Shown here: positions 45,977-64,000 of the stretch, one piece after another
How the letters are laid out: the number at the start of each line of letters is the position of its first letter
Position numbering within the stretch: the first letter of the stretch is position 1
DNA from: Acidobacteriota bacterium
GTDB taxonomy: Bacteria; Acidobacteriota; Thermoanaerobaculia; Gp7-AA8
Length of the DNA stretch: 64,000 bases
Direction of reading: 5' to 3'
NCBI GenBank assembly: GCA_019244185.1
Contig: JAFATB010000022.1
Location: 192,001-256,000 of the forward strand
Notes under the pieces: model-generated
What the model saw: only the letters and a program-made list of their open reading frames with translations
The model's database searches: none
Told to the model about the DNA's origin: nothing
Program-made: the position numbers and the translations under genes

Positions 45977-46841
45977 AGGTCTCATTCTCGCCGGAGGCTC
46001 GGGAACGCGCCTCTATCCGATCACCTCGGTCGTCTCGAAGCAGCTCCTGCCGGTGTACGACAAGCCGATGGTGTACTACCCGCTGACGACGTTGATGCTC
46101 GCCGGCATCCGCGAGTTCCTCATCATCACCACGCCGCAGGACCAGGCCTCGTTCATCAAGCTTCTCGGCGACGGCCATCAGTGGGGCATCGACATTCAGT
46201 ACGCCGTTCAGACCGCGCCGCGAGGACTCGCCGATGCCTTCATCGTCGGCCGCGACTTCGTCGGCGACGATCCGAGCTGTCTCATCCTCGGCGACAACAT
46301 CTTCTACGGCCACGGTCTGACGGATGGTCTGCAGCGCGCCGCCGCGCGCATCGAAGGCGCGACCGTTTTCGCGTATCGCGTGCAGGATCCCGAGCGCTAC
46401 GGCGTCGTCGACATCGACGCGGAGGGCCGCGCGCTGTCGATCGAGGAGAAGCCCGCGCAGCCGAAGTCGAATCTCGCCGTGACGGGTTTGTACTTTTACG
46501 ATCCGCAGGTCGTCGAGATCGCGGCGACGCTGCCGCCGTCGAAGCGCGGCGAGCTCGAGATCACCGACGTCAACCGCATCTATCTCGAGCGCGGCGCATT
46601 GCACGTCGAACAGCTCGGGCGCGGCTTCGCGTGGTTCGACACGGGAACGCAGGAGTCGCTGCTGGCCGCGTCGAACTTCGTGGCGACGGTGGAGATGCGG
46701 CAGGGACTGAAGATCGCCTGCCCCGAAGAGGTCGCCTACTTCATGGGCGCGATCGATGCCGACCGCGTCCGCGAGCACGCGGCGTCGTTGAAAAACAGTA
46801 CATACGGCCGGTATCTGCTCACCATCGCCAACGGGGAATAA
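45969..46841 (+). CDS. rfbA: Glucose-1-phosphate thymidylyltransferase
   Basis: '[26 protein letters not shown]', 'RGELEITD'. Confidence 0.96.
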
Positions 46842-46872
46842 CGCCGCGCCGCTTGGTACTATGGACGCGAGC

Positions 46873-47991
46873 ATGTCCATCCCCCGGCGCGTCGTGGTTC
46901 TGGTCGCTGTCCTTCTGCTCGCCGCAGCGACGTTTGCGGTGCTCCTCGCGCCGCCGCGCTTCCTGCTGCGGAGCATCTCGGTGGCCAGCGCGGACCTGCT
47001 GCTGAGCGGCGCGAATCCGAACGACGGCCGCGTCGTCGCCGCGGGCAGGCGGTTCTTCAGCGCGTGGGTGCAGTCGTCGCTGGCGGCGTCCGTCGCCGAC
47101 CGCGTGGCCACGTCCGCACGCGATGAGGTCGCGCTCGGCCAGATCGTCGTGACGGTGCGCAACGCGATCATCAATCACGAGCAACTCGATCACGTCCCGA
47201 AGACGTGGCCGGCGCTGATCTCCGGACTCGGCTACTGCGACCAGATCAACGGCTCGGTCGCCGCCGTCGCCGCGCGCCGTTTCGGCCAGGCCGAGCTCTT
47301 CGCGTTGTACGACCGCAACGGACTGACGTCGCCGCATACGATCGGCCGTGTATGGTCGCCGCAGCGGAACGAATGGCTTTACTTCGACGCCTTCTACTCG
47401 GTGCCGATCGTCTTCACGAAAGACGCGCGGGGCCGCGCGCATTACGCGCGCGTCGACGGCGGCGTGCTGCCGTCGCGCGGCGTGCCGCTGTACTGGGAGT
47501 ACGACCTCTCCGGCTGGACGCTCTCGCGGTTCCGCGCGTCGTTCGCGGCGCAGGTCGTCGCGCGCGCGCGGCGTGAGGCGTTTGCGCCGCCGGCCGTCGT
47601 CGTTGCGGAAGCGGTCGCACGCGGCGGCGAAGCGGGCTTGCAGAAACCGCCGTCGTACTCCGCGGCCGTCGCGCAGCGCCGGTACGCGGGACCGCCGCCG
47701 TCCGCCGCGGCATCCGCGATCTGCTGCGGCTTCGACGCACCGCCGCCGCGTCGCGCGAGCGACGTGCGTCCTCCGGCGGCGGAAGTGCTCGAGCATCGCG
47801 ACGACGCGACGTACGAGCGCCTCGCGCGTGCCTTCGTCGAAGCGCGCTTTGACACGCTCACCGAAGGCGCGAACGTCGAGGCGTATCGCGCGATCGCCGA
47901 GGATCCGAGGGCAGAGCGGGATGACCGCGCGCGGCAGATTGCGCAGGTCGCGCGGAAGCTCGTCGGACAGATGGTGACGCAGCCGCAATGA
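46873..47991 (+). CDS. Membrane-anchored hypothetical protein with a transglutaminase-like Cys-His-Asp motif set
   Basis: N-terminal TM; 'GYCDQ...PHTIGRVW...WLYFDA'; alternative ATG at 46861; ATGA overlap with gmd. Confidence 0.55.
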
Positions 47992-49046
47992 CGAAGCGCG
48001 CGCTGGTCACGGGCATCACCGGGCAGGACGGTTCGTACCTCACCGAGCTTTTGCTCGAGAAAGGGTACGAGGTGCACGGCATCATCCGCCGTTCGTCCTC
48101 GTTCAACACGGGACGCATCGATCATCTGTATCAGGACGTCCACGATCCCGAGCGGAAGCTCTTCCTGCACTACGGCGACATGAACGACGCGTCGTCGCTC
48201 AACCGCGTGCTGCGCCTCTGCACGCCCGACGAGATCTACAACCTCGCCGCGCAGAGCCACGTGAAAGTGTCGTTCGAGACGCCGGAGTACACGAGCGAGA
48301 TCAACGCCGTCGGTCAACTGCGGCTGCTCGAGGCGATCCGCGAAGTCGACCTGCGTCCGCGCATCTACCAGGCGTCGTCGTCGGAGATGTTCGGCAGCTC
48401 GCCGTCGCCGCAGAGCGAGACCACGCCGTTCGCGCCGCGCAGTCCGTATGCGATCGCGAAGCTCGACGCGTACTGGATGACCGTCAACTACCGCGAGGCG
48501 TACGGCCTCTTCGCCGTCAACGGCATCCTCTTCAACCACGAGTCGCCGCGGCGCGGCGAGACGTTCGTCACGCGCAAGGTCACGCGCGCGGTCGGGCGCA
48601 TCGTGCACGGATTGCAGGACCGGCTGTACGTCGGCAACCTCGAGGCGCGGCGCGACTGGGGTTACGCGCGCGACTATGTCGAGGCGATGTGGCTCATGCT
48701 GCAGCAGTCCGAGCCCGACGACTACGTCGTGGCCACCGGTGAGTCGCACACCGTGCGCGAGCTGTGCGAGGTCGCGTTCGCGCGCGCCGGCTTCGCGCTC
48801 GAATGGAGCGGGGCGGGGGAGAAGGAGCGGGGGATCGACCGCACGTCGGGACGCACGCTCGTCGAGATCGATCCGCGCTACTTCCGTCCGACGGAAGTCG
48901 ACGATCTGCGCGGCGATGCGTCGAAAGCGCGGCGCGCGCTCGGCTGGTCGCCGCGCGTCACGTTCCGTGAGCTCATCGAAATGATGGTCGACTCCGATCT
49001 CGCCCTCGCCGAACGCGAGAAGCGCGCGAACGGAGACGGCGCGTGA
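47988..49046 (+). CDS. gmd: GDP-mannose 4,6-dehydratase
   Basis: '[10 protein letters not shown]', 'AQSHV', '[15 protein letters not shown]'. Confidence 0.97.
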
Positions 49047-49996
49047 CGCTCTGGCCGGCGCGCCGCGTGCTGCTGACCGGCGCCGGCGGCTTTCTCGGCT
49101 CGCACCTGCGCGAGCGGCTCGAATCCCTCGGCGTCGCCGCGCTGTTCGCACCGCCGCGCGCCGAGCTCGATCTGCGCGACGGTGTCGCGGTCACGCGCTA
49201 TCTCGACGAGAAGCGTCCGAACCTCGTCATCCACGCCGCGGCGAACGTCGGCGGCATCGGCGCGAACCGCGCACACCCCGGCCAGTTCTTCCACGACAAC
49301 GCGCTGATGGGCATTCAGCTCATCGAAGCCTCGCGCCGTGCCGGCGTCGAGAAGTTCCTCTGCCTCGGCACCGTCTGCGCGTATCCGAAGTTCACGCCGC
49401 TGCCGTTCCGCGAGAGCGATCTGTGGAACGGCTATCCCGAAGAGACCAACGCGCCGTACGGCCTCGCGAAGCGCATGCTGCTCGTGCAGCTGCAGGCGTA
49501 CCGGCAGGAGTACGGCTTCAACGGCATCTACCTGCTGCCGGCGAATCTCTACGGTCCACGCGACAACTTCGATCTCGAGACCAGTCACGTCATTCCGGCG
49601 ATGATCCGCAAGTTCGTCGAAGCGGACGAAGAGAGCGCGCCGGTCGTCACGCTGTGGGGCGACGGCACGCCGACGCGCGAGTTTCTGCACGTCACCGACG
49701 CCGCCGACGCCGTGCTGCTCGCGGCCGAGCGGTACGACGGCGCGGAGCCGGTGAACATCGGCACCGGCGAGTCGGTATCGATCGCGCAGCTCGCCGATCT
49801 CGTCGCGGATGCCACCGGCTATCGCGGCCGGATCGAATGGAACGTCGCGCAGCCCGGCGGACAACCGAAGCGGCAGCTCGACACCACGCGTGCGCGGGAA
49901 GCGTTCGGTTTCACCGCGCGCGTGCGGCTCGCCGACGGGCTGCGGGAAGCGGTGGCGTGGTATAAAACGCGCCGCCCGCCGCGGCCCACGCCATGA
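49043..49996 (+). CDS. fcl: GDP-L-fucose synthase
   Basis: '[10 protein letters not shown]', 'NLYGPRDNF', '[10 protein letters not shown]'. Confidence 0.93.
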
Positions 49997-51003
49997 AGAT
50001 TCTTCTCACCGGCGCCGCCGGTTTCATCGGGTTCCACGTCACGCAACGCCTGCTCGCGCGCGGCGACTCCGTCGTCGGCATCGACAACCTCAACGACTAC
50101 TACGATCCGTCGTTGAAGGACGCGCGTCTGGCGATGTTGCGCGAGTCGCCGCGGTTCACGTTCGAACGCGCCGACATCTCCGACACCGGCGCGGTGCTGC
50201 GACTCTTTGATATCCATCGACCCGAGCGCGTGGTCAACCTCGCCGCGCAGGCGGGCGTGCGCTACTCGCTCATCAATCCGCACGCGTACACGCAGAGCAA
50301 CGTCAGCGGATTTCTGAACATCCTCGAAGGCTGCCGCGCGACGAACGTCGAGCATCTCGTGTACGCGTCGTCGAGCTCCGTCTACGGTGCGAACACGCGC
50401 CAGCCGTTCGCCGAAGACGACAACGTCGATCATCCGGTGTCGCTGTACGCCGCGACGAAGAAGGCGAACGAGCTGATGGCGCATACGTACTCGCATCTCT
50501 TCGGCGTGCCCACCACCGGCCTGCGCTTCTTCACCGTGTACGGTCCGTGGGGGCGCCCCGACATGGCGCTCTTCAAGTTCACGCGCGGCATCCTCGAAGA
50601 GACGCCGATCGAGGTCTACAACGAAGGCCGCATGGTGCGCGACTTCACGTATGTCGACGACGTCGCGGAAGGCGTCGTGCGGGTGCTCGATCATGTCGCC
50701 GCGCCCGATCCCGACTTCGATCCCACGCAGCCGCGCCCGTCGCGCAGCCGCGCGCCGTATCGCGTCTTCAACATCGGCAACAACCGGCCGGTGCAGCTCC
50801 TCGACTACATCCACGTCCTCGAAGAGTGCCTCGGGAAGAAAGCAAGGATGGAACTGCTTCCGATGCAGCCGGGAGACGTGCCGTCGACGATGGCCGACGT
50901 CTCGCAGCTCGAGGAAGCGGTCGGCTTCCGGCCCGTCACCAGCGTCCGCGACGGCGTGGCCGCGTTCGTGGCGTGGTACAAAAACTACTATCGGATCCCC
51001 TGA
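49993..51003 (+). CDS. NAD-dependent epimerase (UDP-glucuronate 4-epimerase type)
   Basis: '[10 protein letters not shown]', 'YAATKKANE', '[10 protein letters not shown]'. Confidence 0.92.
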
Positions 51004-51041
51004 TCCTCTTCAATCGGATCGGCGGAGCCGCGGAGAATCCG

Positions 51042-52385
51042 ATGTCCATCCAGGAGCAAGTCGCAGGAACGGCGCTGCTCGATCGTTTCCTCGAGGCGGT
51101 CGATGCGCGGACGGCGCGCGTCGGCGTGATCGGCCTCGGCTACGTCGGGCTGCCGCTCGTGCTGCTCTACGCCGACGGCGGCTTTCCGGTGATCGGCTTC
51201 GACGTCGACGCGAAGAAGACCCGCGCGCTCAACGCCGGCGAGTCGTACATCCGCCACATCGGCGTCGATCGCATCCGCTCCGCGTTCGCGCGCGAGCAGG
51301 TCGAGGCCACCACCGACTTCGACCGCCTCGCCGAATGCGACGCGATCATCATCTGCGTCCCGACGCCGCTCGGCGCGCATCGCGAGCCCGACCTCGACTA
51401 CATCCGCGCCACCTCCACCGAAATCGCGAAACGCCTGCGCACCGGACAACTGGTGGTGCTCGAATCGACGACCTATCCCGGCACCACGCGCGAGGAACTG
51501 CTCGCGCCGTTCGAAGCGCGCGGACTCGCGTGCGGCCGCGACTTCTTCCTCGCGTTCTCGCCCGAGCGCGAAGATCCGGGCAACGAGCGCTTCAACACGC
51601 GCACGATCCCGAAAGTCGTCGGCGGCATCGACGAGCCGTCGCTGCGCGCCGCGAAGGCGCTCTACTCGACCGTCATCAACACCGTCGTTCCTGTCTCCAG
51701 CGCCGAAGTCGCGGAGTCGTCGAAGCTGCTCGAGAACATCTTCCGCGCCGTGAACATCGCGCTCGTCAACGAGATGAAGATCGTCTTCGAGCGGATGGGC
51801 ATCGACGTCTGGGAAGTGATCGAGGCCGCGCGCACGAAGCCGTTCGGCTTCATGCCGTTCTATCCCGGCCCCGGACTCGGCGGCCACTGCATTCCGCTCG
51901 ATCCGTTCTATCTCACGTGGAAAGCCGCGGAGTACGGGACGTGGGCGCGCTTCATCGAGCTTGCGGGCGAGGTGAACACCGCCATGCCGCGCTACGTCGT
52001 CGACCGCACGGTCGAAGCGGTGAACGCCGCGGGCCGCAGCATCGTCGGTGCGCGCGTGCTCGTCCTCGGCCTCTCGTACAAGCCGGACATCGACGACGAC
52101 CGCGAGTCGCCGTCGTTTGAGCTCATCGAGCTGCTGCAGGAGCGCGGCGCGGACGTCGCGTATTGCGACCCGTACATCCCCGAGGCGCGACGAGGGCGCA
52201 AGCACGACCTGGGATTGCATTCGGTGCCGTGCACGGCGGAAGAGTTCGGAACGTACGATGCGGTCGTCGTGTCGACGCCGCACAGCCAGTTCAAGGATGC
52301 GGCGCTGTGGTCCAACGTGCGCGTCGCGGTCGATACGCGAAACATCGTGCCGCGGGACACGGCGACGCGCGTCATTCGCGCGTAG
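51042..52385 (+). CDS. Nucleotide-sugar dehydrogenase (UDP-GlcNAc 6-dehydrogenase/WbpA type)
   Basis: GLGYVG, 'LESTTYPGTT', 'SPEREDPGN', 'GGHCIPLDP'. Confidence 0.92.
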   Translation: MSIQEQVAGTALLDRFLEAVDARTARVGVIGLGYVGLPLVLLYADGGFPVIGFDVDAKKTRALNAGESYIRHIGVDRIRSAFAREQVEATTDFDRLAECDAIIICVPTPLGAHREPDLDYIRATSTEIAKRLRTGQLVVLESTTYPGTTREELLAPFEARGLACGRDFFLAFSPEREDPGNERFNTRTIPKVVGGIDEPSLRAAKALYSTVINTVVPVSSAEVAESSKLLENIFRAVNIALVNEMKIVFERMGIDVWEVIEAARTKPFGFMPFYPGPGLGGHCIPLDPFYLTWKAAEYGTWARFIELAGEVNTAMPRYVVDRTVEAVNAAGRSIVGARVLVLGLSYKPDIDDDRESPSFELIELLQERGADVAYCDPYIPEARRGRKHDLGLHSVPCTAEEFGTYDAVVVSTPHSQFKDAALWSNVRVAVDTRNIVPRDTATRVIRA

Positions 52386-52394
52386 ACTGACGCC

Positions 52395-54386
52395 ATGTGC
52401 GGCATCGCCGGCGCATTTCTTCGAGGCGCGGGCTCGCGCGCCGAGCTCGAGTCGGTCGTGACCGGGATGACGTGTGCCATCGAGCACCGCGGCCCCGACG
52501 ACAGCGGCGTCTTCATCGACGAGCGCGCCGGACTCTCGCTCGGCTTCCGCAGGCTCTCGATCATCGACCTCTCGCCGGCCGGACATCAGCCGATGCAGTC
52601 GGCGAGCGGCCGTTACGTTCTCATCTACAACGGTGAGGTCTACAACTACGAGGCCGTGCGCGCGGAGCTCGAGCGCGCCGGCGCGATGTCGTGGCGCGGG
52701 CATTCGGATACGGAAGTCATGCTCGCGGCGATCGAACGCTGGGGACTCGACGGCGCGTTGTCGCGCTTCATCGGCATGTTCGCGATGGCGCTCTGGGATC
52801 GCGCGGAGCAGACGCTGCATCTCGTCCGCGACCGGCTCGGCGTGAAGCCGCTGTACTACAGCTTCGCCGGCAACGCGGTGCTGTTCGCGTCGGAGCTGAA
52901 GGCGATCGAAGCGCATCCGCGCTTCCGCGGCGAGATCGACCGCGACGTCGTCGGTTTGTACGCGCGCTACAGCTACATCCCCGCGCCGTACACGATCTAT
53001 CGCGACACGTGGAAGCTACCGCCGGGTTGCGTGCTCTCGATCAAGCCCGGCGACGCGCGTCCCGAGCCGCGCGCGTACTGGGACCTGCAGGAAGTCGCGC
53101 CACGCGCGATCGCCTCGCGGTTCCGCGGCGGCGATGACGAGGCGCTCGATGCGCTGGATGCGCTCGTCGCCGACGCCGTTCGTCTGCGCATGGTCGCGGA
53201 CGTGCCGCTCGGCGTGTTCCTCTCCGGCGGCATCGACTCCTCGCTGATCGCCGCGGCGATGCAGGCGCAGAACAGCAGTCCGGTGAAGACGTTCTCCATC
53301 GGCTTCCACGAGTCGCTCTACGACGAGGCGCAATACGCCGCCGCGGTCGCGCGCCATCTCGGCACCGCGCACACGGAGCTCTACGTCACGCCGCGCGAAG
53401 CGCAGGACGTCATTCCGCTGCTGCCGCGCATGTACGACGAGCCGTTCGCCGACTCCTCGCAGATCCCGACGTATCTCGTCTCGAAGCTCGCGCGGCAATC
53501 CGTCACCGTGAGCCTCTCCGGCGACGGCGGCGACGAGCTGTTCGGCGGCTACCACCGCTACTTCCTCGGGCAGAAACTGCTGCGCGGCGTCGCGCGCGTG
53601 CCGCGAGCGTTGCGTCCTCCCGCGGGTGCCGCGTTGCGCGCGGTGCCGGTGTGGATGTGGAACCGCCTGCTCTCGCCGGAGTCGCGCATCATGCCGCGCG
53701 CGCTGCGCCGCGACCGCGCCGGCGAACGGCTGCACAAGTTCGCGCGCGCAATGAACGACCGCAGCGACGACGCGCTCTACCACGAGATCGTCACGCAGTG
53801 GTCGAGCGTCGTCCCGGGCGCGCGTCCGCTGCCGATCGCGATCACCGCACGCGCCGCGCGCGCGCCGATCGCCGACACGATCGAGCGCATGATGTTCTTC
53901 GATCAGCTCTCGTATCTGCCCGACGACATCCTCGTGAAAGTCGATCGCGCGAGCATGGCCGTGAGCCTCGAGGCGCGCGAGCCGCTGCTCGATCATCGCC
54001 TCGTCGAGTTCGCGTGGTCGCTGCCGCTGTCGATGAAGATCCGCGACGGCAAGGGGAAGTGGATCCTGCGCAAGCTGCTGACGCGCTACGTGCCGGAGGC
54101 GCTCATCGAGCGGCCGAAGATGGGCTTCGGCCTGCCGATCGATCAGTGGCTGCGCGGTCCGCTACGCGGCTGGGCCGAAGAGCTGCTCGATCCGCGGCGG
54201 CTGCGGCAGGATGGTTTCTTCGATGCGACCGAGGTCCGCACGAAGTGGGACGAACACCTCGGCGGCCGCGGCGAATGGCAGCAGCCGCTCTGGACCATTC
54301 TCATGTTCCAGGCGTGGCGTGCGGAGCGCCGCGCATCAGCGGACGGAACGGCGCTTCCCGCCGCCGCCGCCACCGCAATCGGTTAG
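52395..54386 (+). CDS. asnB: Asparagine synthase (glutamine-hydrolysing) family amidotransferase
   Basis: MCGI N-terminus, HRGPD, LSGGIDSS, SGDGGDELFGGY, 'KVDRASM'. Confidence 0.92.
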   Translation: MCGIAGAFLRGAGSRAELESVVTGMTCAIEHRGPDDSGVFIDERAGLSLGFRRLSIIDLSPAGHQPMQSASGRYVLIYNGEVYNYEAVRAELERAGAMSWRGHSDTEVMLAAIERWGLDGALSRFIGMFAMALWDRAEQTLHLVRDRLGVKPLYYSFAGNAVLFASELKAIEAHPRFRGEIDRDVVGLYARYSYIPAPYTIYRDTWKLPPGCVLSIKPGDARPEPRAYWDLQEVAPRAIASRFRGGDDEALDALDALVADAVRLRMVADVPLGVFLSGGIDSSLIAAAMQAQNSSPVKTFSIGFHESLYDEAQYAAAVARHLGTAHTELYVTPREAQDVIPLLPRMYDEPFADSSQIPTYLVSKLARQSVTVSLSGDGGDELFGGYHRYFLGQKLLRGVARVPRALRPPAGAALRAVPVWMWNRLLSPESRIMPRALRRDRAGERLHKFARAMNDRSDDALYHEIVTQWSSVVPGARPLPIAITARAARAPIADTIERMMFFDQLSYLPDDILVKVDRASMAVSLEAREPLLDHRLVEFAWSLPLSMKIRDGKGKWILRKLLTRYVPEALIERPKMGFGLPIDQWLRGPLRGWAEELLDPRRLRQDGFFDATEVRTKWDEHLGGRGEWQQPLWTILMFQAWRAERRASADGTALPAAAATAIG

Positions 54387-54773
54387 CGACGTCACCACCG
54401 CGCGGCCGTCCGGAACGCTCAGCACGATCGGCGCGTGACACATGTCCATGCCGTCGTAGTGATTCGTCGCGCCGTCCATCGAGTCGAACACCTCGCACGC
54501 GAACGGCTCCTCGGGCGGAATGTAGATCGAGCCTTCCTCGACGCGGCGGAGGATCAGCCACGGCCGGTCGTCGCGTCCGGTCGGCAGCGTGATCACGTAC
54601 TTGTCGCCGCCGGCCATGACGAGCGCGGCCGCGGCGCAGTTCCACGTCGCGCACGACGTGACGATCCAGGTGTAGCGAATCGGGTTGGTGGTCGGCGGTG
54701 CATCGTCCGCCTGAGCGGCCGCGGCAGTGAGCAACAGCGCGGCGGCGAGCACAGCTCCAATCGATCGGTTCAT
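54336..54773 (-). CDS. Small secreted Cys-containing protein ending in a Gly-linker-KRRSVR tail
   Basis: Signal peptide (AAQA); 5 Cys; C-terminal GGGGGGKRRSVR; SD GGAG. Confidence 0.7.
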   Translation of the reverse strand: MNRSIGAVLAAALLLTAAAAQADDAPPTTNPIRYTWIVTSCATWNCAAAALVMAGGDKYVITLPTGRDDRPWLILRRVEEGSIYIPPEEPFACEVFDSMDGATNHYDGMDMCHAPIVLSVPDGRAVVTSLTDCGGGGGGKRRSVR

Positions 54774-54798
54774 GACACGGGTCTCCAACGATCGCCTC

Positions 54799-54814
54799 TG
54801 AAATCCACGTGCCA
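54799..54814 (-). promoter_or_regulatory. Possible sigma54 promoter
   Basis: Minus strand TGGCACGTGGATTTCA: perfect -24 box, variant -12 box. Confidence 0.35.
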
Positions 54815-54881
54815 GTGACATGCGTCACGTGCAAAGAAGTAGGCAGGCTCTTTTCATACGTATAACTTTTTCGGAGGCCCC

Positions 54882-56816
54882 ATGAGACGCACAGCGGTAA
54901 TCTTCCTCTCCGTCGTCCTGCTCCTGCTCGCGGGAAGCGCGCTGGCCGGCACGTTCATCGTGCCCGACGACGACGAGATGGTGACGAAAGCAGATGCAAT
55001 CGTCGTCGGCACGGTCGAGGGCGCTTACGCGCAGGAAGCCGACAACACGATCGAAACGGTGTACGAGATTCGCCTCGAGCGCGCGGTCAAAGGGATCGCG
55101 GAACCCAATGCGTTGCTTCGCGTCGTGACGATGGGCGGCGTGATCGGCGACCGCGGCGTCATCGTGTCCGGCGAGGCGCAGTACGAACAGGGCGAGCGCG
55201 TGCTGGTCTTTCTCACGCGCGACCGCGGCCGCTGGCGCACGACCGATCTCACGCTCGGCAAATTCAAGTTCGCGACGTCGACGACCGGCGAGCGTCTTCT
55301 CGTCCGCGACATGGACGACGTCCTCGGCTGGGACCGCTCCGGCGCCGTGCATCAGGAGCCGGTGCGCAAAGAAGAAGGCTTCATGCGCTTCGTCGAGGCG
55401 CGCGCGCACGGACGCGCCGCGCAGCAGGACTACAGCGTCGATCCGTCCGAGGTGATGTTGCCGGCGAAACCGGCACCGCTTGCGAAGGCGTTGCAGCAGA
55501 TGAGCAGCTACGGATTGCAGCAGGCGGCGACGACGTACGACCCCGCGACGTACACGAGCTGGGTGAACAACACGCCGACGCGCTGGCCGAACATCTCCGC
55601 CGGCGTGACCTGGTACAAACGCTCCGATCAGAACATCTCCGGCGCCGCGGACGGCGGCGTGAGCGTGATTCAGGGCGGACTGGCCGCATGGACGAATGAA
55701 TGCGGCTCGAACATCAACCTGATGTACGGCGGCCAGACGGCGACGGTGTCGAAGAACTTCGACAGCACGAACGTCGTCGAGTTCAACGATCCGCAGGGCC
55801 GCGTTTCGGGGTCGTGGACCGGCGCCGGAACCGTGGCCATCACGTTCACGTCGTTCGGCAGCAACCACACGTTTCTCAACCGGTCGTGGCTCAGCATCAC
55901 CGACGCGGACGTCGTCTTTCAGGACGGCTTTCCGGGAACCAGCTCCGCGTTTGCGCCCGCGATGACGCATGAGCTCGGACATGGCATCGGCTGGCGCCAC
56001 TCGAACCAGAGCCATCTCAACGGCGGCACGTGCGACTCGACGGTCGAAGAGTGCACGAGCGCCGCGATCATGAACTCGAGCGTCAACGGCAACTACGGCT
56101 TCACGCTGCAGCCGTGGGACATTCACGCCGCGCAGGGCGTATATCCGGGCGGCACGTGCGGGGGCGGGACGACGTGCACGCCTCCGACGATCACGACGCA
56201 GCCGACGGCGAGGACGGTGGCGGCGGGGATCTCCACCACCATCACCGTCACCGCAACCGGCACCGGGCTCACGTACGAGTGGTACGTCGGCGCGCCGGGC
56301 AACACGGCCAATCGCATCCCCGGCGTCAGCGGGCCGTCGCTCACCGTGACGCCGGGCGCGACGACGACGTACTGGGTGCGCGTCGTCGGCCAATGCGGCA
56401 CCGCGAACAGCACCGCCGCGACCGTGACCGTCACGGCGGGAACGGCCGCCGCGAGCACGGCCTCGAAGCTGTATCTCGTCACGCCGTGCCGTACGCTCGA
56501 CACGCGCGCCGGCAGCCCGCTGTATCCCGCGAGCACGCAGCTCGTCACGATCACGGGTAAGTGCGGCGTGCCGGCCGGCGCGAAGGCGATCGTCATGAAC
56601 ATCACCGCGGTCACGCCGGCGTCGAACGGAACGCTCATCGCGTATCCCGGCACCGGCGAGGCGCCGCCGGGCACGAGCACGGTCAGCTACCGCACGGGTC
56701 GCACGCGTGCGAACAACTCGATCATGCGTCTCTCGTCCGATGGACGTCTGGCCATCTACAACAGCGGCCCGAGCGCGATTCACTTTCTCATCGACGTCAC
56801 GGGCTACTTCCAATGA
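54882..56816 (+). CDS. Secreted matrixin/M10-like zinc metalloprotease with Ig-like and shared C-terminal domain
   Basis: Signal peptide; HELGHGIGWRH; Met-turn 'AIM'; C-terminal LYLVTPCRTLDTR...IDVTGYFQ. Confidence 0.85.
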   Translation: MRRTAVIFLSVVLLLLAGSALAGTFIVPDDDEMVTKADAIVVGTVEGAYAQEADNTIETVYEIRLERAVKGIAEPNALLRVVTMGGVIGDRGVIVSGEAQYEQGERVLVFLTRDRGRWRTTDLTLGKFKFATSTTGERLLVRDMDDVLGWDRSGAVHQEPVRKEEGFMRFVEARAHGRAAQQDYSVDPSEVMLPAKPAPLAKALQQMSSYGLQQAATTYDPATYTSWVNNTPTRWPNISAGVTWYKRSDQNISGAADGGVSVIQGGLAAWTNECGSNINLMYGGQTATVSKNFDSTNVVEFNDPQGRVSGSWTGAGTVAITFTSFGSNHTFLNRSWLSITDADVVFQDGFPGTSSAFAPAMTHELGHGIGWRHSNQSHLNGGTCDSTVEECTSAAIMNSSVNGNYGFTLQPWDIHAAQGVYPGGTCGGGTTCTPPTITTQPTARTVAAGISTTITVTATGTGLTYEWYVGAPGNTANRIPGVSGPSLTVTPGATTTYWVRVVGQCGTANSTAATVTVTAGTAAASTASKLYLVTPCRTLDTRAGSPLYPASTQLVTITGKCGVPAGAKAIVMNITAVTPASNGTLIAYPGTGEAPPGTSTVSYRTGRTRANNSIMRLSSDGRLAIYNSGPSAIHFLIDVTGYFQ

Positions 56817-56825
56817 TCCGCGAGC

Positions 56826-56861
56826 GGCGGGCGGCGGGTTTTGTCCCGCCGCCTGCCTTTT
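56826..56861 (+). terminator. Rho-independent terminator
   Basis: ggcgggcggcggg-ttttgt-cccgccgcctgcc-tttt. Confidence 0.75.
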
Positions 56862-56930
56862 CCGAGAATTTCGTGAGCGGCGTCACCGGTTCATGTGCCA
56901 ATAACCCTTATCGTCAACCGGGTTCAACAC

Positions 56931-59258
56931 ATGAGCAAGCGAGCATCCTCTGTTCTCTTTGTCGCTGTCGTTGCGTTCATCGCGGCCACTCGTGCCGACG
57001 CGGGCATTCAGTCGCGCGCCGACGGAGACGTGATCTCGCCGCTCCTGCGGCCGATGGCGACCGGCACGCGCGTGCAGCTGCGCCACATTCCGGTGGGCGA
57101 TGCACTCGACGCGTCTCTCGATCTCGAGCGCTTCGAAGTGTGGGCGCCGAATGCGGAGCTCGTCGTGGAGCATGACGGCGGACAGCGCACGCACATCGCG
57201 CCGCCGCCGGTGCAGTACTTCCGCGGCACCGTCTCCGGCGATCCGGAATCGATGGTGTTCCTGGCGGTGCGCAGCGATGGCGCGACCGAGGGTCTCGTGA
57301 TTTCGAAGGAGCGCAGGTTCACGGTGCGCTCGCGTTCGCCGAAAGACATCGTGGTCGAAGACGTCGCGGCGACGGATGACTACACGCCGGGCGGCGGCTT
57401 CATGTGCGATCTCGACGGCGCGCCGGTCTCGTTGAAAGGCGGCACGCTTCCGAGCGTCCGCTCGCTGGTTTCCGGCATCGATCCGCAGACGAACGGCACG
57501 CTCAGCGCCACGGGCACGTGGACGCTGAACCTCGCCATCGAGACCGACAACGAGCTGTATGTCGACTTCAGCTCGAATCCGACCACTGTCGCGACGTTCA
57601 TCGGCAACGTCGTCGGCGCGGCATCGACGATCTACAAGCGCGATCTGCAGACGGATCTGCTCATCACGTTCTCGCGCATCCAGGCCACGGCGTCCGATCC
57701 GTGGACCATCAATCCCGGCTCGACCGGTACGTGGAACGGCTCGTCGACGACGTACACGACCTCGCACGCGCTCGCCGAACTCGGCGACGTCTGGGCCAAC
57801 AGCGGCACGCGTCCTTACAACGGTCCGCGTTCTTCCGTCGTGCTGATGAGCGGCAAGTCGCAGACCGCCGGCGTCGCGTGGATCGGCGCGTCGTGCACCG
57901 CCGACTCGCTTTGCAGCGGCGCGGGATGCGGCATCTTCAACGGCCACTACTCGGGCGGCTTTGCCTACATCGGCCTCGGCAATCCGAGCGCGACCGTGCC
58001 CAATCCCGATGCGACCGTCAATGGCGTTCCGTATGGTCTTCCGTCGACGAACTACTGGCCCGTCCTCGGCTTCGCGCACGAGCTCGGACACAACGTCGGC
58101 TCGCAGCACACGCACTGCGTCGCGCTGACCGCGGATCAGAAGACCGCGTACAACGTCACGCGCAGCTACATCGACGAGTGCTACGCCGGCGAAGGCGGCT
58201 GCTACGGTGGCGCCACGAGCGTTCCCCCGGAGAAGGGGACGATCATGAGCTACTGCCATCTCACGTTCTCCGGCGGCTTTCCGCAGAGCCGGTTTCTCTT
58301 CGGCAAAGCCGGTGAGCCGAGCGAGTTGATTCAGCAGGCGATCAAGAGCTACATCAACAGCCGCACGCCCGCGTCGCCGGCGATCAGCGCGCCCGCTTCG
58401 GTCGCATCGGGCGCGAGCGGCAACGCGTCGATCAATTCGCCCGTAGCCGGCCTCACGTACGACTGGACGATCACGAACGGCACGATCAACGGCAGTACGC
58501 AGGGCTCTTCGATCAACTTCACCGCGACGACGAACCCCGTCACGCTGCGCGTGCGCGGCACGAACACGTCGGGCTGCTCCGCATCCGATTCCGTGAACGT
58601 CACCGTCACCGCCGCCTGCACGCCGCCTTCGATCACCAGCGTCAATGCGAACGTCGTCATCACGAGCGGCACCACCGTCGAGTTGAACGCCACGGCGACC
58701 GGCACCGGACCGATCACGTATCAGTGGTACGTGGGAGAGTCGGGCGACGTCTCGACGCCGGCAGCGGTCGGCAATCCGATCAACGCCACGCCGTTGTCCA
58801 CGACCGCGTATTGGGTGCGCGCGTCGAACGCGTGCGGATCTGCGGACAGCCGCACCGTGCGTCTCGGGGTGGTCGACCCGCCGACGACGAGCGCATTGCT
58901 CTACATCGTCACGCCGTGCCGCCTCATCGATACACGCGGTCCCGCCGGACCGCACGGCGGACCCGCGATCGCGAACCTCGGCACGCGCGACGTCGCCGTC
59001 GCCGGCTCGTGCGGAATCCCCGCCGACGCCAAGGCCGTGGTCGCCAACATCACGGCGGTCGCGCCCGCGACCACCGGCTTCCTCGCTTTTTATCCCACTG
59101 GCTCTACCTGGCCAGGAAATAGCACCATGAACTACCGGACGGGCAAAACCCGCGCGAATAATGCGACACTGGTGTTGTCTGCTGCCGGAAGCGTCACGGT
59201 GTTGAATAATGGCTCTACGCAGAATTTCATTGTCGATGTGACCGGCTACTACAAGTGA
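56931..59258 (+). CDS. Secreted reprolysin/M12-like zinc metalloprotease with PKD/Ig-like and shared C-terminal domain
   Basis: Signal peptide; HELGHNVGSQH; 'GTIMSYCH'; C-terminal LYIVTPCRLIDTR...VDVTGYYK. Confidence 0.85.
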   Translation: MSKRASSVLFVAVVAFIAATRADAGIQSRADGDVISPLLRPMATGTRVQLRHIPVGDALDASLDLERFEVWAPNAELVVEHDGGQRTHIAPPPVQYFRGTVSGDPESMVFLAVRSDGATEGLVISKERRFTVRSRSPKDIVVEDVAATDDYTPGGGFMCDLDGAPVSLKGGTLPSVRSLVSGIDPQTNGTLSATGTWTLNLAIETDNELYVDFSSNPTTVATFIGNVVGAASTIYKRDLQTDLLITFSRIQATASDPWTINPGSTGTWNGSSTTYTTSHALAELGDVWANSGTRPYNGPRSSVVLMSGKSQTAGVAWIGASCTADSLCSGAGCGIFNGHYSGGFAYIGLGNPSATVPNPDATVNGVPYGLPSTNYWPVLGFAHELGHNVGSQHTHCVALTADQKTAYNVTRSYIDECYAGEGGCYGGATSVPPEKGTIMSYCHLTFSGGFPQSRFLFGKAGEPSELIQQAIKSYINSRTPASPAISAPASVASGASGNASINSPVAGLTYDWTITNGTINGSTQGSSINFTATTNPVTLRVRGTNTSGCSASDSVNVTVTAACTPPSITSVNANVVITSGTTVELNATATGTGPITYQWYVGESGDVSTPAAVGNPINATPLSTTAYWVRASNACGSADSRTVRLGVVDPPTTSALLYIVTPCRLIDTRGPAGPHGGPAIANLGTRDVAVAGSCGIPADAKAVVANITAVAPATTGFLAFYPTGSTWPGNSTMNYRTGKTRANNATLVLSAAGSVTVLNNGSTQNFIVDVTGYYK

Positions 59259-59268
59259 GGTGACCCTG

Positions 59269-59718
59269 ATGCGACGCCTGATCCTTTCCGCAGTTTTCTT
59301 CGCCCTGCTCGCCCTTCCGCGAATCGCTTCCGCGCAGAGCGGGCCGTACTCGTACTATCCGCTGTCGCCGTGCCGCGTCGTCGACACGCGCAATGCGAAC
59401 GGCACGAACGGCGGTCCCGCGTTCGGCACCGACGCCACGCGTAACTTCCAGATTCGCGGCTTCTGCGGCGTTCCGACGACTGCGAAGGCGGTGTCGCTGA
59501 ACGTAACCGTGACGCAGGCCAGCCAGGCCAGCTGGCTCGCCGTGTGGCCGTCCGGCACGGCCCGTCCCGTGGTCTCGATGATCAACTTCGAGCCGACCGA
59601 CCCCGCGCTCGCGAACGGCATCATCGTCGGCCTCTCGTCGGCGACACAGGACCTTTCCGTCTACAACAACTTCGGCAGCGTCCACGTGATCATCGACGTC
59701 ACCGGCTATTTCCAATAG
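59269..59718 (+). CDS. Secreted protein made only of the shared 'PCRxxDTR...DVTGYF' domain
   Basis: SD GAGG; signal peptide ending ASA; YYPLSPCRVVDTR...CGVPTTAKAVSLNVT...IDVTGYFQ. Confidence 0.85.
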   Translation: MRRLILSAVFFALLALPRIASAQSGPYSYYPLSPCRVVDTRNANGTNGGPAFGTDATRNFQIRGFCGVPTTAKAVSLNVTVTQASQASWLAVWPSGTARPVVSMINFEPTDPALANGIIVGLSSATQDLSVYNNFGSVHVIIDVTGYFQ

Positions 59719-59809
59719 CCGGCGTCGCCGCGTGCGATCGGGAACGGCGCGCCTCCGGGCGTGCCGAATTTTTTTTGGGGCATTTCACGTTCCTCGCCGC
59801 AGGTCCATC

Positions 59810-62800
59810 ATGCTCAAGCCATCGAACGCGTTCCTGCGGCGCACGCTCCCGCTTTGTCTCGCGCTTGTTCTGCTCGCGCCGTCTGTGTTTGCACAGGCAC
59901 TCACCGTGACGCGGTTCGCCGGCTCCGATTCCGGACCGGGTTATGCCGACGGCACGGGCAGCGCCGCACGCGTCCATGACGTGCGGGCGATTGCAACGGA
60001 TGCAGCCGGGAACGGCTACATTGTCGATCGGACGCAAAACGTCATTCGCAAGATGACGCCATCGGGCGTGGTGACGACGTTTGCCGGCCGTGAAGGAGCG
60101 TCGGGATTCGCGGATGGGCGTGGCGCTGCTGCGCGCTTCGACAGCCCGGAAGGCATCGCCGTGGATGATCGCGGCTACGTCTACGTCGCCGACTCCGCTA
60201 ACGGACGGATCCGTGTGATCTCTCCCGAAGGCGTGGTCACGTCACTCACTCCGGCGTACGCGTTCAACTGGCCGGATGGTGTGGCCGTGGACAATGTGGG
60301 CAACGTGTATGTGGCCGAGGTGACCGGCCATACCGTGCGCGTCATCCGCCCCAACGGAGCGGTGTCGCTGGTCGCCGGCTCGGCGGGTGTCTCAGGAACG
60401 GCGGACGGGATTGGCGCCGCGGCGAGGTTCGGGAACATCTTCAGTCTCACCTGGAATCGTGCGACGGGAGAGTTGCTCGTCGCCGAGTCCGACCGCATTC
60501 GGAAAATCACGATCGATCGCGCGACGCTGCAAGGCACGGTCGCTACAGTGGCGGTCCCCGGCAATTACGTGAATGCAGTCACGGTCGATGCTTCCGGCGT
60601 TCTGTATGCGGCGGTCAGCACCAGCGTCGTGTTGCGCGTCAGCGGGGGCGTTGCCTCCATCTACGCCGGCAGTCAGTATCACCTGCAGGGCAGCAACGAC
60701 GGCTCGCTCGATGCGGCGAGGTTCATTTTTCCCTCCGGGATCGCTGCCGCCCCCGGCGGTGTCCTGTACGTGGTTGATTTCGGCACGACCGACGTCCGCA
60801 AGCTTGCCGGCGGCTTCGTCACGACCATCGCCGGCACGCCGGTGCGATACGGGTCGTCCGGTGGTACGTGCGATACGACGCAGTTCCGCTACCCGACGGA
60901 TACGGTCGTGGACAGTCACGGCAACGTCTTCGTTGCGGACCAGCTCGTGATCGCCAAGATCACGCCCGCCTGTCAGGTGCAGGTGTTTGCCGGCTCTTAC
61001 GACCACTACGTTTCGCACGACGGAACGGGAGTCAACGCCGCGTTTTCCAGCCTCGGGACGCTCGCCATCGACGCCAACGACAATCTGTACGCCGTCGATG
61101 CGAATGCGATCCGCAAGATCACGCCGGCCGGAGTCGTCACGACGTACGCTGGAGTCGCGGACCAGAGCGGCAGCGCGAACGGCAACGGAATCAACGCGCG
61201 TTTCTCGTCTCCATTCGGCATCGCCGTCGACGCCTCCGGCAACGTGTTCGTCGCCGATCAGAACCACGTCATCCGCAAGATCACGACCTCCGGAGACGTG
61301 AGTCTGGTTGCCGGTGCCGTCGGTCAGCAGGGCTCCTCGGACGGCACGGCGGGAGCGGCGCGTTTCAATGTGCCGGCGGGAATGGCCTTCGGAGCCGACG
61401 GAACTCTCTACGTCGCCGACTACATGAATGACACCATCCGGAAAATCACGATGCCGGACGCGGTCGTCTCGACGCTCGCCGGTAGTCCTGGCCAGTGGGG
61501 GTGGACGGACGGCACCGGTGCGAGCGCACTGTTCGACGCCCCGTCCGACGTGGTCATCGGCAGTGACGGTCGTCTCTACGTCTCCGATGGGAACCACGTC
61601 ATCCGGCAGATCGTGGGCAATGTCGTGTCGACCGTGGCCGGCCGCGCCCGGCAGTCGGGGAACGTCGACGGAACCGGCCAGATCGCGCGGTTCCACACGA
61701 ACGGCGGTCTCAGCGCAGACACCCAGGGGAATCTCTACATCGCCGACGTGGCTGCGTACAACGTCCGCCGCGCGCGGCTGCCGGGCATCGACGACGTCGC
61801 GACGGCATCGACGACGACGCCGGCCCTCCACACGACCGTACAGCTTGGAACCGCGCCCGCCACGGCGACGAGCTGGCAGTGGAGCATCGTGCGCCGGCCG
61901 TCCGGCTCGACGGCGGAGCTCTCGTCTTCGATCAGCCGCACTCCGACGTTTGCTCCGGACGTCGCCGACGTCTATACGCTCATGCTGCGTGCCGAAGGCG
62001 CGGCCGGCGTACGCTACTCCACTATCGACGTCGCGCCCACGGATCCGTGTTCACCGATTGCGTCCGTCGTTGCGACGCTGAGTGGTTCCTCCTGCGTCGC
62101 GTCGGGCAGCACCGCCACGGTGAACGTCAGCGGAGGCGGCGCGGTGACGTACCAGTGGGGCTGGCGCTCGGTCTCCGCCGGCACGATCACGCCGCTCCCG
62201 GGGAAGACATCCTCAGCCTATACGATCGATGCCGCGGACTTTGGCGCCGGCAGCCCGGCCTATCTCGTTGCCACCGTGACATCCGAATGCGGTGTCGTCA
62301 CGACGTCCAACGAAGTGCCTGTCAGCACGGGTCCGTCGGCGACGATCTCCGCGAGCAGCAATGTCTTCGCGAATGCCGCAGACAACTACGCCTCCGTATC
62401 TGCCGCCGGAGCGTCCGCGACCTACGCATGGTCGATCACGAACGGCACCATCTCCGCGGGGCAGGGAACGAATCGCATCGTCTACACCGCGGGAGCGAGC
62501 GGCGAAGTGGTGCTGAGCGTGACGGTCACCGATGGTTGTCCCACGACGAGCGAGGTGCATGTGCCGGTCGTGCCGCGCCCCGCGGGTGCATCGATGCTGT
62601 ATCTCGTCACGCCGTGCCGCGTGTTCGACAGCCGTAACGGCGCGCCGCTCGCGAATCACAGCATTCGCACGGTCGCGATCGGAGGCTCGTGCGGCGTGCC
62701 GGTGGACGCGCGGAGCATCGCGGCGAACATCACCGTCGTCGCGCCGGCGACGACCGGATGGGTGTCGCTCTTTCCCGACGCGAACAACTGGCCGGGCACG

Positions 62801-62938
62801 AGCACGCTCAACTATCGCGGCGGCAAAACGCGGGCGGGGAACGCGATCGTCAGTCTGAACGCGAGCGGACAGCTCGCGCTGAAGAACGAAGGCTCGAGTG
62901 TGAACGTGCTCATCGATGTCACCGGCTATTTCAAGTAA
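59810..62938 (+). CDS. Secreted NHL-repeat (beta-propeller) protein with Ig/PKD-like and shared C-terminal domain
   Basis: Repeated 'DGxGxxARF..PxGIAVD..GNVYVAD..IRKIT'; C-terminal LYLVTPCRVFDSR...IDVTGYFK. Confidence 0.88.
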   Translation: MLKPSNAFLRRTLPLCLALVLLAPSVFAQALTVTRFAGSDSGPGYADGTGSAARVHDVRAIATDAAGNGYIVDRTQNVIRKMTPSGVVTTFAGREGASGFADGRGAAARFDSPEGIAVDDRGYVYVADSANGRIRVISPEGVVTSLTPAYAFNWPDGVAVDNVGNVYVAEVTGHTVRVIRPNGAVSLVAGSAGVSGTADGIGAAARFGNIFSLTWNRATGELLVAESDRIRKITIDRATLQGTVATVAVPGNYVNAVTVDASGVLYAAVSTSVVLRVSGGVASIYAGSQYHLQGSNDGSLDAARFIFPSGIAAAPGGVLYVVDFGTTDVRKLAGGFVTTIAGTPVRYGSSGGTCDTTQFRYPTDTVVDSHGNVFVADQLVIAKITPACQVQVFAGSYDHYVSHDGTGVNAAFSSLGTLAIDANDNLYAVDANAIRKITPAGVVTTYAGVADQSGSANGNGINARFSSPFGIAVDASGNVFVADQNHVIRKITTSGDVSLVAGAVGQQGSSDGTAGAARFNVPAGMAFGADGTLYVADYMNDTIRKITMPDAVVSTLAGSPGQWGWTDGTGASALFDAPSDVVIGSDGRLYVSDGNHVIRQIVGNVVSTVAGRARQSGNVDGTGQIARFHTNGGLSADTQGNLYIADVAAYNVRRARLPGIDDVATASTTTPALHTTVQLGTAPATATSWQWSIVRRPSGSTAELSSSISRTPTFAPDVADVYTLMLRAEGAAGVRYSTIDVAPTDPCSPIASVVATLSGSSCVASGSTATVNVSGGGAVTYQWGWRSVSAGTITPLPGKTSSAYTIDAADFGAGSPAYLVATVTSECGVVTTSNEVPVSTGPSATISASSNVFANAADNYASVSAAGASATYAWSITNGTISAGQGTNRIVYTAGASGEVVLSVTVTDGCPTTSEVHVPVVPRPAGASMLYLVTPCRVFDSRNGAPLANHSIRTVAIGGSCGVPVDARSIAANITVVAPATTGWVSLFPDANNWPGTSTLNYRGGKTRAGNAIVSLNASGQLALKNEGSSVNVLIDVTGYFK

Positions 62939-63041
62939 GGTGACGTCGATTCTGTTTTGACAGAGCCCGAGAGTCACCTCAGATCCCTCATCGCGGCCGT
63001 GCCGGTGATCGCGTACCGCGCCGCCGGTACCGGGTCGCGCG

Positions 63042-63140
63042 GTGGTCTCGATGATCAACTTCGAGCCGGACCGATCCGGCGCTCGCGAACGGCATCATCG
63101 TCGGCCTCTCATCGGCGACAGGACCGTCCGTTGACAACGT
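63042..63140 (+). pseudogene. Frameshifted remnant of the stand-alone-domain gene (59269-59718)
   Basis: gtggtctcgatgatcaacttcgagcc(g)gaccga..gcgctcgcgaacggcatcatcgtcggcctctc..ggcgac matches ~59570-59665 with small indels. Confidence 0.85.
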
Positions 63141-63203
63141 TCGAACTCCAACGGCGCGCCGATTTTTCTTTGAGCATTTCGCGTTCCTCGCCGAAGGTCC
63201 ATC

Positions 63204-64000
63204 ATGCCCAAACCATCGGACGCACACGTGCGGCTCTCGTTCTGTCTCGTACTGCTCCTGCTTGCGTCCGCCTCGTTTGCACAGGAGCTCACCGTCACGC
63301 GTTTTGCCGGGACGGATGTGGGAAAGGGCCATACGGACGGCACCGGCAGCGACGCTCGATTCAGCATGCCCGAGGCGGTTGCTGTCGATTCCGCGGGCGA
63401 CGTCTACATCGCAGATTCCGAACAGAACGTCATACGCAAGATGACGCCGGCGGGGGTCGTGACGACGTTTGCGGGCCGGGTGGGCGTCGAAGGATCCGCT
63501 GACGGTCATGGCGGTGCGGCGAGTTTCTCAGCGCCGCGAGGAATCGCGGTCGACTCGCGCGGATACGTCTATGTCGCCGATCGTGATTCCGGAGCGGTTC
63601 GCCGGATCTCGCCGCAGGGCGTCGTAACTCACGTCGTCCCTGCCGGCACCTTTCAGTATCCGCAAGGGATCGCCGTGGACAACCTCGGCAACATCTACCT
63701 TTCAGACGGTTACTTCGGACAGGTTTATGTGATTCGTCCGGACGGCAACGTGTCGCTGGTGGCGGGATCCACGACACCGGGGCACGCCGACGGGATCAGT
63801 GATCAGGCGTCGTTCTACGCCATCTATGGACTTGCGTGGAACGCGCAGACCGGCGAGCTGCTCGTTGCAGATGATGATCGCGTTCGGAAAATCGCGATCA
63901 ATTCATCGACGCTGGTGGGAACCGTCACGACGGTCGCGGTTCTCGAACCCGACGTTTTGGCGGTCACGGTCGATGCGTCGGGCGTCGTTTACGCCGCGCT
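63204..64000 (+). CDS. Second NHL-repeat secreted protein, paralog of 59810-62938 (runs off window end)
   Basis: Manual translation MPKPSDAHVRLSFCLVLLLLASASFAQELTVTRFAG...; frame open to 64000; absent from the ORF track because it has no stop. Confidence 0.88.
   Translation, partial: MPKPSDAHVRLSFCLVLLLLASASFAQELTVTRFAGTDVGKGHTDGTGSDARFSMPEAVAVDSAGDVYIADSEQNVIRKMTPAGVVTTFAGRVGVEGSADGHGGAASFSAPRGIAVDSRGYVYVADRDSGAVRRISPQGVVTHVVPAGTFQYPQGIAVDNLGNIYLSDGYFGQVYVIRPDGNVSLVAGSTTPGHADGISDQASFYAIYGLAWNAQTGELLVADDDRVRKIAINSSTLVGTVTTVAVLEPDVLAVTVDASGVVYAA

Follow-up and report, generated by a model that had tools for sequence, protein, structure and literature searches.

A C-terminal domain of predicted jelly-roll fold shared by five secreted proteins in a polysaccharide locus of an Acidobacteriota bacterium

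In SLH and CWB2 proteins, three tandem copies of a domain form a pseudo-trimer at one end of diverse secreted proteins and attach these to a secondary cell-wall polymer, and the genes often lie near those for the synthesis of the polymer. The C-terminal domains of type IX secretion (T9SS CTDs; TIGR04183 for type A and TIGR04131 for type B) are small beta-sandwiches that form the very C-terminal end of diverse secreted proteins, often preceded by Ig-like spacers. Tails of the PEP-CTERM and LPXTG type consist of a short motif, a hydrophobic helix and a basic end. C1q/TNF-like trimeric jelly-roll heads, such as the C1q globular head and the BclA C-terminal domain, are also among the closest known systems to the subject of this study, a domain (the tail domain) that ends each of five consecutive genes, P1 to P5, in DNA of a soil Acidobacteriota bacterium (Thermoanaerobaculia; assembly GCA_019244185.1, contig JAFATB010000022.1, forward-strand positions 192,001 to 256,000). 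We refer to this whole stretch of 64,000 nucleotides as the window. According to the open reading frame (ORF) calls, the array occupies positions 54882-64000 on the plus strand, and P5 is completed outside the window.

The tail domain resembles the T9SS CTDs in all the features named above, but it matches no T9SS model, its family has members with three to nine copies or with N-terminal copies, and it is present in monoderms. With SLH and CWB2 it has only the logic in common. The fold differs, that of SLH and CWB2 being helical or Rossmann-like, no Pfam match connects them, and polymer binding by the tail domain is putative. The layout of PEP-CTERM and LPXTG-type tails is absent from it.

A likeness in fold was found to the tip of Bd2133, a 'mosaic adhesive trimeric' fibre of Bdellovibrio bacteriovorus (PDB 8OK3/8OND, PMC10769870), which the available part of that paper describes as a twisted beta-sandwich of about 120 residues. 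The Bd2133 tip is a three-fold trimer, as is, by prediction only, the tail domain. It is carried on a long beta-helical trimeric fibre, whereas here the domain is joined to metzincins, NHL propellers, GSDH or no passenger at all; tandem cis-triplets, present in the tail family, are not mentioned for Bd2133 in the available part of the paper. In the literature and family catalogues searched, this paper was the sole related match, and neither the tail family nor its one-copy and three-copy duality nor its reach was found. A trimeric jelly-roll head is a known kind of structure; the tail family is uncatalogued.

One terminal domain, many secreted passengers

The original prediction described a shared terminal module with two cysteines on four unrelated secreted proteins of the window, and the alignment bears this out and extends it to a fifth gene. 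The four copies in the window align over ~125 residues, with identities to the first copy of 50, 34 and 50%. Their alignment (A1) has 24 invariant columns, including the two Cys, P-C-R-x-x-D-x-R, C-G-x-P, N-x-T and a terminal D-V-T-G-Y. A profile built from A1 matched the five array copies with E-values from 4.7e-59 to 3.8e-69, far beyond chance, and the domain starts predicted at ~56469, 58899, 59353 and 62597 were off by no more than a few codons. The proteins close with D-V-T-G-Y-(F/Y)-(Q/K)-stop within a beta-strand, and have no hydrophobic tail, hydrophobic helix or basic end.

No match to the tail domain came from Pfam or NCBIfam, nor from PDB sequences searched with a 4-sequence and a 32-sequence profile, in agreement with the earlier view that it is uncharacterised. 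In the PDB sequence search, the best match of the 4-sequence profile was to an unrelated carbohydrate-binding module (CBM) at a non-significant E of 0.35, and the 32-sequence profile gave none at E ≤ 10. Neither SLH (PF00395) nor CW_binding_2 (PF04122) was among the Pfam matches of the five window proteins at E ≤ 0.1, and TIGR04183 was absent from the NCBIfam matches of four of them at E ≤ 1. Neighbours in the ESM Atlas belonged to unnamed clusters only. One homologue carries a precomputed match to PF26607; this is the partner domain Beta-prop_PLL and not the tail domain.

The family is large. With the four-sequence profile we recovered 36,387 clusters (50% identity) at E ≤ 0.001, of which 11,522 remained at E ≤ 1e-30, which makes it one of the larger domain families absent from the catalogues that we searched. 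With a family model, 'hypothetical' tails could be annotated by the tens of thousands. Every set of sequences retains the core P-x-R-x-x-D-T-R ... N-x-T ... P-x-x-S-x-L-N ... N ... D-x-x-G-Y-F, and the Cys pair is present in 98-100% of the acidobacterial sets and in <70% of the top multi-copy set.

Copy number was counted in the 150 best-scoring proteins, a set in which the summed score favours many copies. Three copies were found in 120 proteins, six in 17, five in nine, four in two, and eight and nine in one each. The last copy lay within 10 residues of the protein end in 123 of the 150 and was not C-terminal in the other 27, and in 30 the first copy began within 60 residues of the N-terminus. 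A Pfam scan of 54 of these proteins found no family at all in 19. Partners of the triplets in the scanned proteins included peptidoglycan enzymes (Amidase_2, CHAP in two proteins, GH25, YkuD, C39-like), glycanases (GH10, GH8), proteases (S8 in two, reprolysin), propellers and repeats (RCC1 in five, Kelch in two, NHL, PD40), and spacers and other domains (BNR/sortilin, PKD, fn3, TIG, DUF11, BACON, PPC, beta-helix).

Proteins that, like P3, consist of the tail domain alone are numerous as well, with 797 near-length homologues; the best 120 of these are 61-93% identical and all unnamed, and neither in these 120 nor in the window proteins is the domain covered by a family of Pfam or NCBIfam. Similar modules had been expected in Actinomycetota, and all 25 plasmid records matching a triplet query come from that phylum (Streptomyces 19, Arthrobacter 2, Curtobacterium 2, Paenarthrobacter 2). 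The annotations of their carriers read hypothetical, PKD, LamG-like, cutinase or RHS; a Curtobacterium RHS protein and a cutinase-family protein have the triplet close to the N-terminus. No phage record matched the tail domain in a tblastn search.

The acidobacterial branch differs in copy number. In 73 related loci, 109 of the 113 stop-to-stop ORFs with a complete C-terminal end carry a single copy ending at the stop codon, and none is multi-copy. The nearest relatives all belong to Thermoanaerobaculia, Holophagales, Vicinamibacteria or unclassified Acidobacteriota assemblies, as found by a search with back-translated patterns that is biased to close kin. The domain was detected at E ≤ 1e-5 in six of 201 genomes sampled from the phylum (that of the window included; G024 is unpublished), with 3-19 matches each, a figure that may be an undercount, as at most 19 first-look candidates were scored per genome.

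Nine proteins with strong matches are encoded in the window's own genome, which is 98.92% complete. In seven the domain is single and C-terminal (the five array proteins, a 551-aa PKD_6 protein and a GSDH-PKD protein). One protein has three copies following three PKD domains, and in another the domain occupies residues 44-179 of 498. The expectation that the domain is always terminal thus holds in the window and in nearly all acidobacterial ORFs, and fails for the family at large and for these last two proteins.

This distribution bears on the original suggestion of a new T9SS-CTD-like sorting system, in which the tail would be a C-terminal signal read by a dedicated secretion or attachment machine and then removed or anchored. 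Such a signal would account for the single copy placed exactly at the stop codon in the acidobacterial branch, for its position behind Ig_7, which its Pfam name links to the CHU_C tail, and for the unrelated passengers clustered in arrays. It would not account for tandem triplets, sextets and one nonuplet, for the best-scoring proteins in which no copy is C-terminal, for triplets at the N-terminus of plasmid-encoded proteins of Actinomycetota, where there is no outer membrane to be crossed, or for the N-terminal domain of one protein in the same genome. The four window proteins have no TIGR04183 match, the tail lacks a hydrophobic helix and a basic end, and there is no dedicated translocon gene among the scanned neighbours of the array. 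Models for SprA (TIGR04189) and Por_Secre_tail (TIGR04183) gave no matches in the genome, but gave none in control genomes either, so that this is no evidence of absence. Because of the multi-copy and N-terminal members, the monoderm carriers, the rigid globular assembly predicted below and the lack of a machine encoded nearby, the sorting-signal idea fails, and we consider it highly improbable. Most likely, the tail domain is neither an enzyme nor a secretion signal.

Predicted fold and three-fold assembly

AlphaFold2 predicted an eight-strand jelly roll for the tail domain of P1 (predicted local distance difference test score, pLDDT, 83.1; predicted template-modelling score, pTM, 0.75). Three copies of P3 residues 26-152, folded together with a 32-row alignment, gave a trimer with a score of 0.96 (0.96, 0.95 and 0.96 in the individual runs), against 0.17 for the best of three controls. 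In a calibration, the score mark was reached by 20 of 30 proteins whose solved structures are pairs of one chain and by 1 of 23 whose solved structures are single chains; this holds only roughly for P3, for which we supplied the alignment ourselves and folded three copies instead of two. The runs shared at least 96% of contacts, with a partner pLDDT of at least 94. A natural triplet protein of 395 aa was predicted with a pLDDT of 90.5 and a pTM of 0.89, values that indicate one rigid body.

Conservation agrees with this model. Of the 19 residues conserved across the family, 13 lie in the predicted P3 interface, to which 48 of the 127 residues belong overall (hypergeometric p 0.0035). In 121 proteins, repeats in the same position and in different positions were similar to a like degree between proteins (identity 0.43-0.45), which makes the positions interchangeable, and a search for features specific to repeat 1, 2 or 3 found none. 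In one set, identity was higher among the copies of a single protein than between proteins (0.61 versus about 0.44). Repeats that are undifferentiated and similar within each protein fit a symmetric unit that is kept uniform. We regard it as likely that the working unit of the tail domain is three-fold.

The same evidence could be explained if the tail served only to trimerise and stabilise its passengers and had no ligand of its own, like the C-terminal jelly rolls of some secreted proteases. This would account for the concentration of conserved residues at the predicted interface, the C-terminal jelly roll of the subtilase Tk-SP (3afg) appears in the Foldseek list of the domain (E 2.2e-03), and the Bd2133 tip stands where an S74 trimerising chaperone would be (PMC10769870, available part). 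The stand-alone protein, conserved in hundreds of near-length homologues, has nothing to stabilise, however, and cis-triplets on monomeric enzymes give the passenger no oligomerisation, so that another purpose is needed for them. Pure stabilisation is in our view unlikely.

A putative binding and retention head in a polysaccharide locus

We propose that the tail is a jelly roll of ~120 residues and eight strands that works as a three-fold assembly. For most of the family, this would be a rigid pseudo-trimer packed from the three copies of a single chain. In the acidobacterial branch, which has one copy at the protein end, three chains would join, and we infer that this yields trimeric proteases, trimeric propellers and, from the stand-alone gene, a trimer without passenger. 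The assembled head would act as a binding or retention knob that holds secreted enzymes on an extracellular polymer, for which the polysaccharide made by the surrounding locus is the obvious candidate. We think that a head of this kind, with this role, is the probable explanation of the domain, and propose more tentatively, with rather more doubt than confidence, that it binds a glycan. Surface anchoring or glycan binding, a possibility raised by the original prediction and the function that we prefer, is plausible on the present analysis.

The partners named above (peptidoglycan enzymes, glycanases, proteases and propellers) and the genomic setting support such a role. The array was predicted to adjoin a nucleotide-sugar cluster; polysaccharide genes in fact lie on both sides of it. 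The upstream flank is listed in Table 1. P5 is followed by genes for a methyltransferase, a GT1 glycosyltransferase, a beta-helix protein, a GT4-family transferase, an epimerase, a second GT1 and a Wzy_C protein. With sugar genes on both flanks, the array lies within a polysaccharide locus. The order (epimerase)/AsnB/161-aa protein (minus strand)/P1/P2/P3 recurs in five related Thermoanaerobaculia assemblies (L015-L018, L036) at 54-77% identity, the 161-aa protein being kept beside P1 in all five at 54-64%. The order NHL protein/ORF/methyltransferase/GT1/beta-helix protein recurs in one other related assembly. P3 is the best-conserved member of the array, at about 77%, and its orthologues (69-77% identity) directly follow other large tail-bearing genes in four further loci (L019, L022, L027, L048).

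The partners also raise the possibility that the tail is a CBM aimed at plant, fungal or bacterial polymers of the environment, which would direct enzymes to their substrate and not to the surface of the producer. GH10, GH8, GH25, GH16 (by source name) and cutinase partners are what such a module would be found with. Many passengers are, on the other hand, proteases, propellers, RCC1 or Kelch proteins, or there is none, and the domain has no better sequence match to a CBM than the non-significant one given above. We judge a CBM of this type to be distinctly unlikely.

Several observations weigh against a retention head. The domain, the size of its family, its copy numbers and its setting are observed and the fold and the trimer are predicted; the ligand and the retention role are inferred only, and the GH10, GH8 and cutinase partners fit substrate targeting equally well as retention on the cell's own surface. 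Conserved positions lie mainly in the predicted interface, which implies that the family conserves the assembly and not an obvious common binding site. The P3 trimer is a matter of model confidence, which could partly echo solved trimeric jelly rolls. The likeness to the Bd2133 tip is one of fold, with no sequence homology detectable (no PDB match at E ≤ 10 with the 32-sequence profile), and on an O-antigen array strong binding is reported only for another fibre, Bd2439, with none mentioned for Bd2133 in the available part of the paper (PMC10769870). The synteny of the sugar locus is limited to close kin (60-77% identity) and could simply be inherited, and in the window's own genome sugar-locus neighbours were examined at this array only.

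The retention head may have a variant specific to the first three genes. The start of P3 lies 1-10 nt past the stop codon of P2, a GAGGTG stretch overlaps this stop, and a consensus scan found no terminator-like site between P1, P2 and P3; the scan is a consensus match only, with 4 sites found against 5.6 expected in shuffles. The sequence suggests that P1, P2 and P3 form one transcription unit. With this unit closed by the terminator-like site after P3, the GTG at 59732, where the P4 ORF opens, would not be the start of P4, which is more likely the ATG at 59810, downstream of that site.

P1, P2 and the passenger-free P3 might accordingly be imagined as C1q-style heterotrimers, in which two metalloproteases and a 'blank' subunit share a head that docks on the polysaccharide of the locus, a candidate split-gene equivalent of the cis-triplet. 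Leads in this direction are the closeness of the P3 start to the P2 stop, the position of the terminator-like site, the three-gene order in the five relatives, the P3 orthologues that directly follow other large tail-bearing genes, and the nearly identical 3' ends of P4 and P5 described below. Interface positions are only modestly more alike between the paralogues (0.41-0.64, against 0.31-0.51 elsewhere), and the complex that was folded is the P3 homotrimer alone. Co-assembly of the three proteins is improbable in our estimate; if true, it would be a new bacterial route to modular surface-displayed enzyme complexes.

The tail marks secreted enzymes of Acidobacteriota and Actinomycetota, two phyla whose surface display and matrix biology are poorly known. 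Should it anchor them to extracellular polymers as a three-fold unit, it would correspond in these phyla to SLH and CWB2, and would explain the presence of proteases, propellers and wall hydrolases inside polysaccharide loci. The orphan fold of the Bd2133 tip gains a very large set of possible relatives, and P3 is a small and easy target for structure determination and glycan screening. The window itself contributes the three-gene candidate operon with a passenger-free member, the placement in a conserved Thermoanaerobaculia polysaccharide locus, the apparent homogenisation of the P4 and P5 3' ends, and the finding that conserved residues are enriched at the predicted interface.

Features of the array and further observations

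Table 1. Coordinates of the array and its upstream flank in the window.
Feature	Position	Strand	Description
Upstream sugar-nucleotide flank	44160-54386	+	Pfam: DegT, rhomboid, nucleotidyl transferase, GDP-mannose dehydratase, two epimerases, UDP-sugar dehydrogenase, asparagine synthase
161-aa protein	54336-54821	-	Signal peptide, several Cys, no Pfam family; directly upstream of P1
P1	54882-56816	+	644 aa; secreted metzincin of uncertain family (HExxHxxGxxH), then Ig_7, then tail domain
Tail domain copy 1 (P1)	56469-56813	+	Up to the stop codon; profile match 4.7e-59
P2	56931-59258	+	Secreted reprolysin-like (M12B) metalloprotease, then PKD_6, Ig_7, tail domain
Tail domain copy 2 (P2)	58899-59255	+	Profile match 1.5e-64
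P3	59269-59718	+	Stand-alone: signal peptide and tail domain only, 149-152 aa
Terminator-like hairpin	59745-59776	+	9 pairs, 8 of them G-C, then a T run; directly 3' of P3
P4	59810-62938	+	Secreted NHL beta-propeller (TEN_NHL 1.4e-33, NHL 1.3e-28), then PKD_6, tail domain
Tail domain copy 4 (P4)	62597-62935	+	Profile match 2.5e-63
P5	63204-64000	+	5' part of a second NHL paralogue; runs on to C7:258320, with the same tail domain at its end

The protease part of P1 had been called M10-like. Apart from the HExxHxxGxxH motif it gave only sub-threshold matches, to Reprolysin_5 (E 0.01) and M43 (E 0.048) in Pfam and to myroilysin (E 0.013), and the M10 assignment was not upheld; the Ig_7 domain of P1 matched with E 5.1e-08. 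P2, which had been called M12-like, passes the Pfam cut-offs for Reprolysin_5 (2.3e-14), _3, _4 and _2, and its Ig_7 domain matched with E 9.8e-11. The P2 ORF spans 56895-59258 (787 aa) with a likely start at the ATG at 56931, and the P3 ORF spans 59260-59718 (152 aa) with a likely start at the ATG at 59269.

All five proteins have N-termini that, judged by eye, resemble signal peptides (a basic and a hydrophobic stretch, and an Ala-X-Ala-like site). Signal-peptide calls were otherwise made with a crude hydrophobicity script and no trained predictor, and are weak evidence. Among the stand-alone proteins 116 of 120 were flagged by the script, among the top multi-copy proteins 85 of 129, and among the near-length triplets, many of them fragments, 34 of 83; of random long ORFs, 43 of 155 were flagged as well.

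P4 and P5 are 50-80% identical in protein sequence along most of their length. Over the last ~500 nt, which encode the PKD-like region and the tail domain, their DNA is 96-99% identical (62440-62938 versus G000:C7:257820-258320, about 2820-3320 of L090), which looks like recent gene conversion or recombination.

In the sugar-nucleotide flank, a gene for a rhomboid-family intramembrane protease (45281-45976) lies between the DegT and nucleotidyl transferase genes.

Elsewhere in the genome, the domain is found at the start of two secreted proteins, G000:C23:62894-64387 (minus strand; L008 544-2037) and G000:C2:8074-9804 (minus strand; L012 169-1899). The match is strong in the former and weak in the latter (E 2.5e-4). 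Both proteins run on into long Gly/Ser/Thr-rich regions without a Pfam family, a layout that is the reverse of a fibre with a tip. A third secreted protein of 1065 aa (G000:C13:165886-169080) has PPPPPPPHD Pro-rich repeats and Ig_7-like repeats; its marginal profile match (E 0.0097) is probably due to chance or very distant relationship.

In the Curtobacterium plasmid, the RHS repeat-associated core protein with the near-N-terminal triplet (L088 3725-8314) is encoded beside a MobF relaxase gene, and the tail module may double as the targeting end of polymorphic toxins. In a six-copy member of the family, P0001, a whole-protein match to S_layer_C (PF05124, E 1.1e-08) covers residues 640-672 within a repeat, with no single stretch passing, and a distant link to archaeal S-layer outer domains is possible from this sequence similarity.

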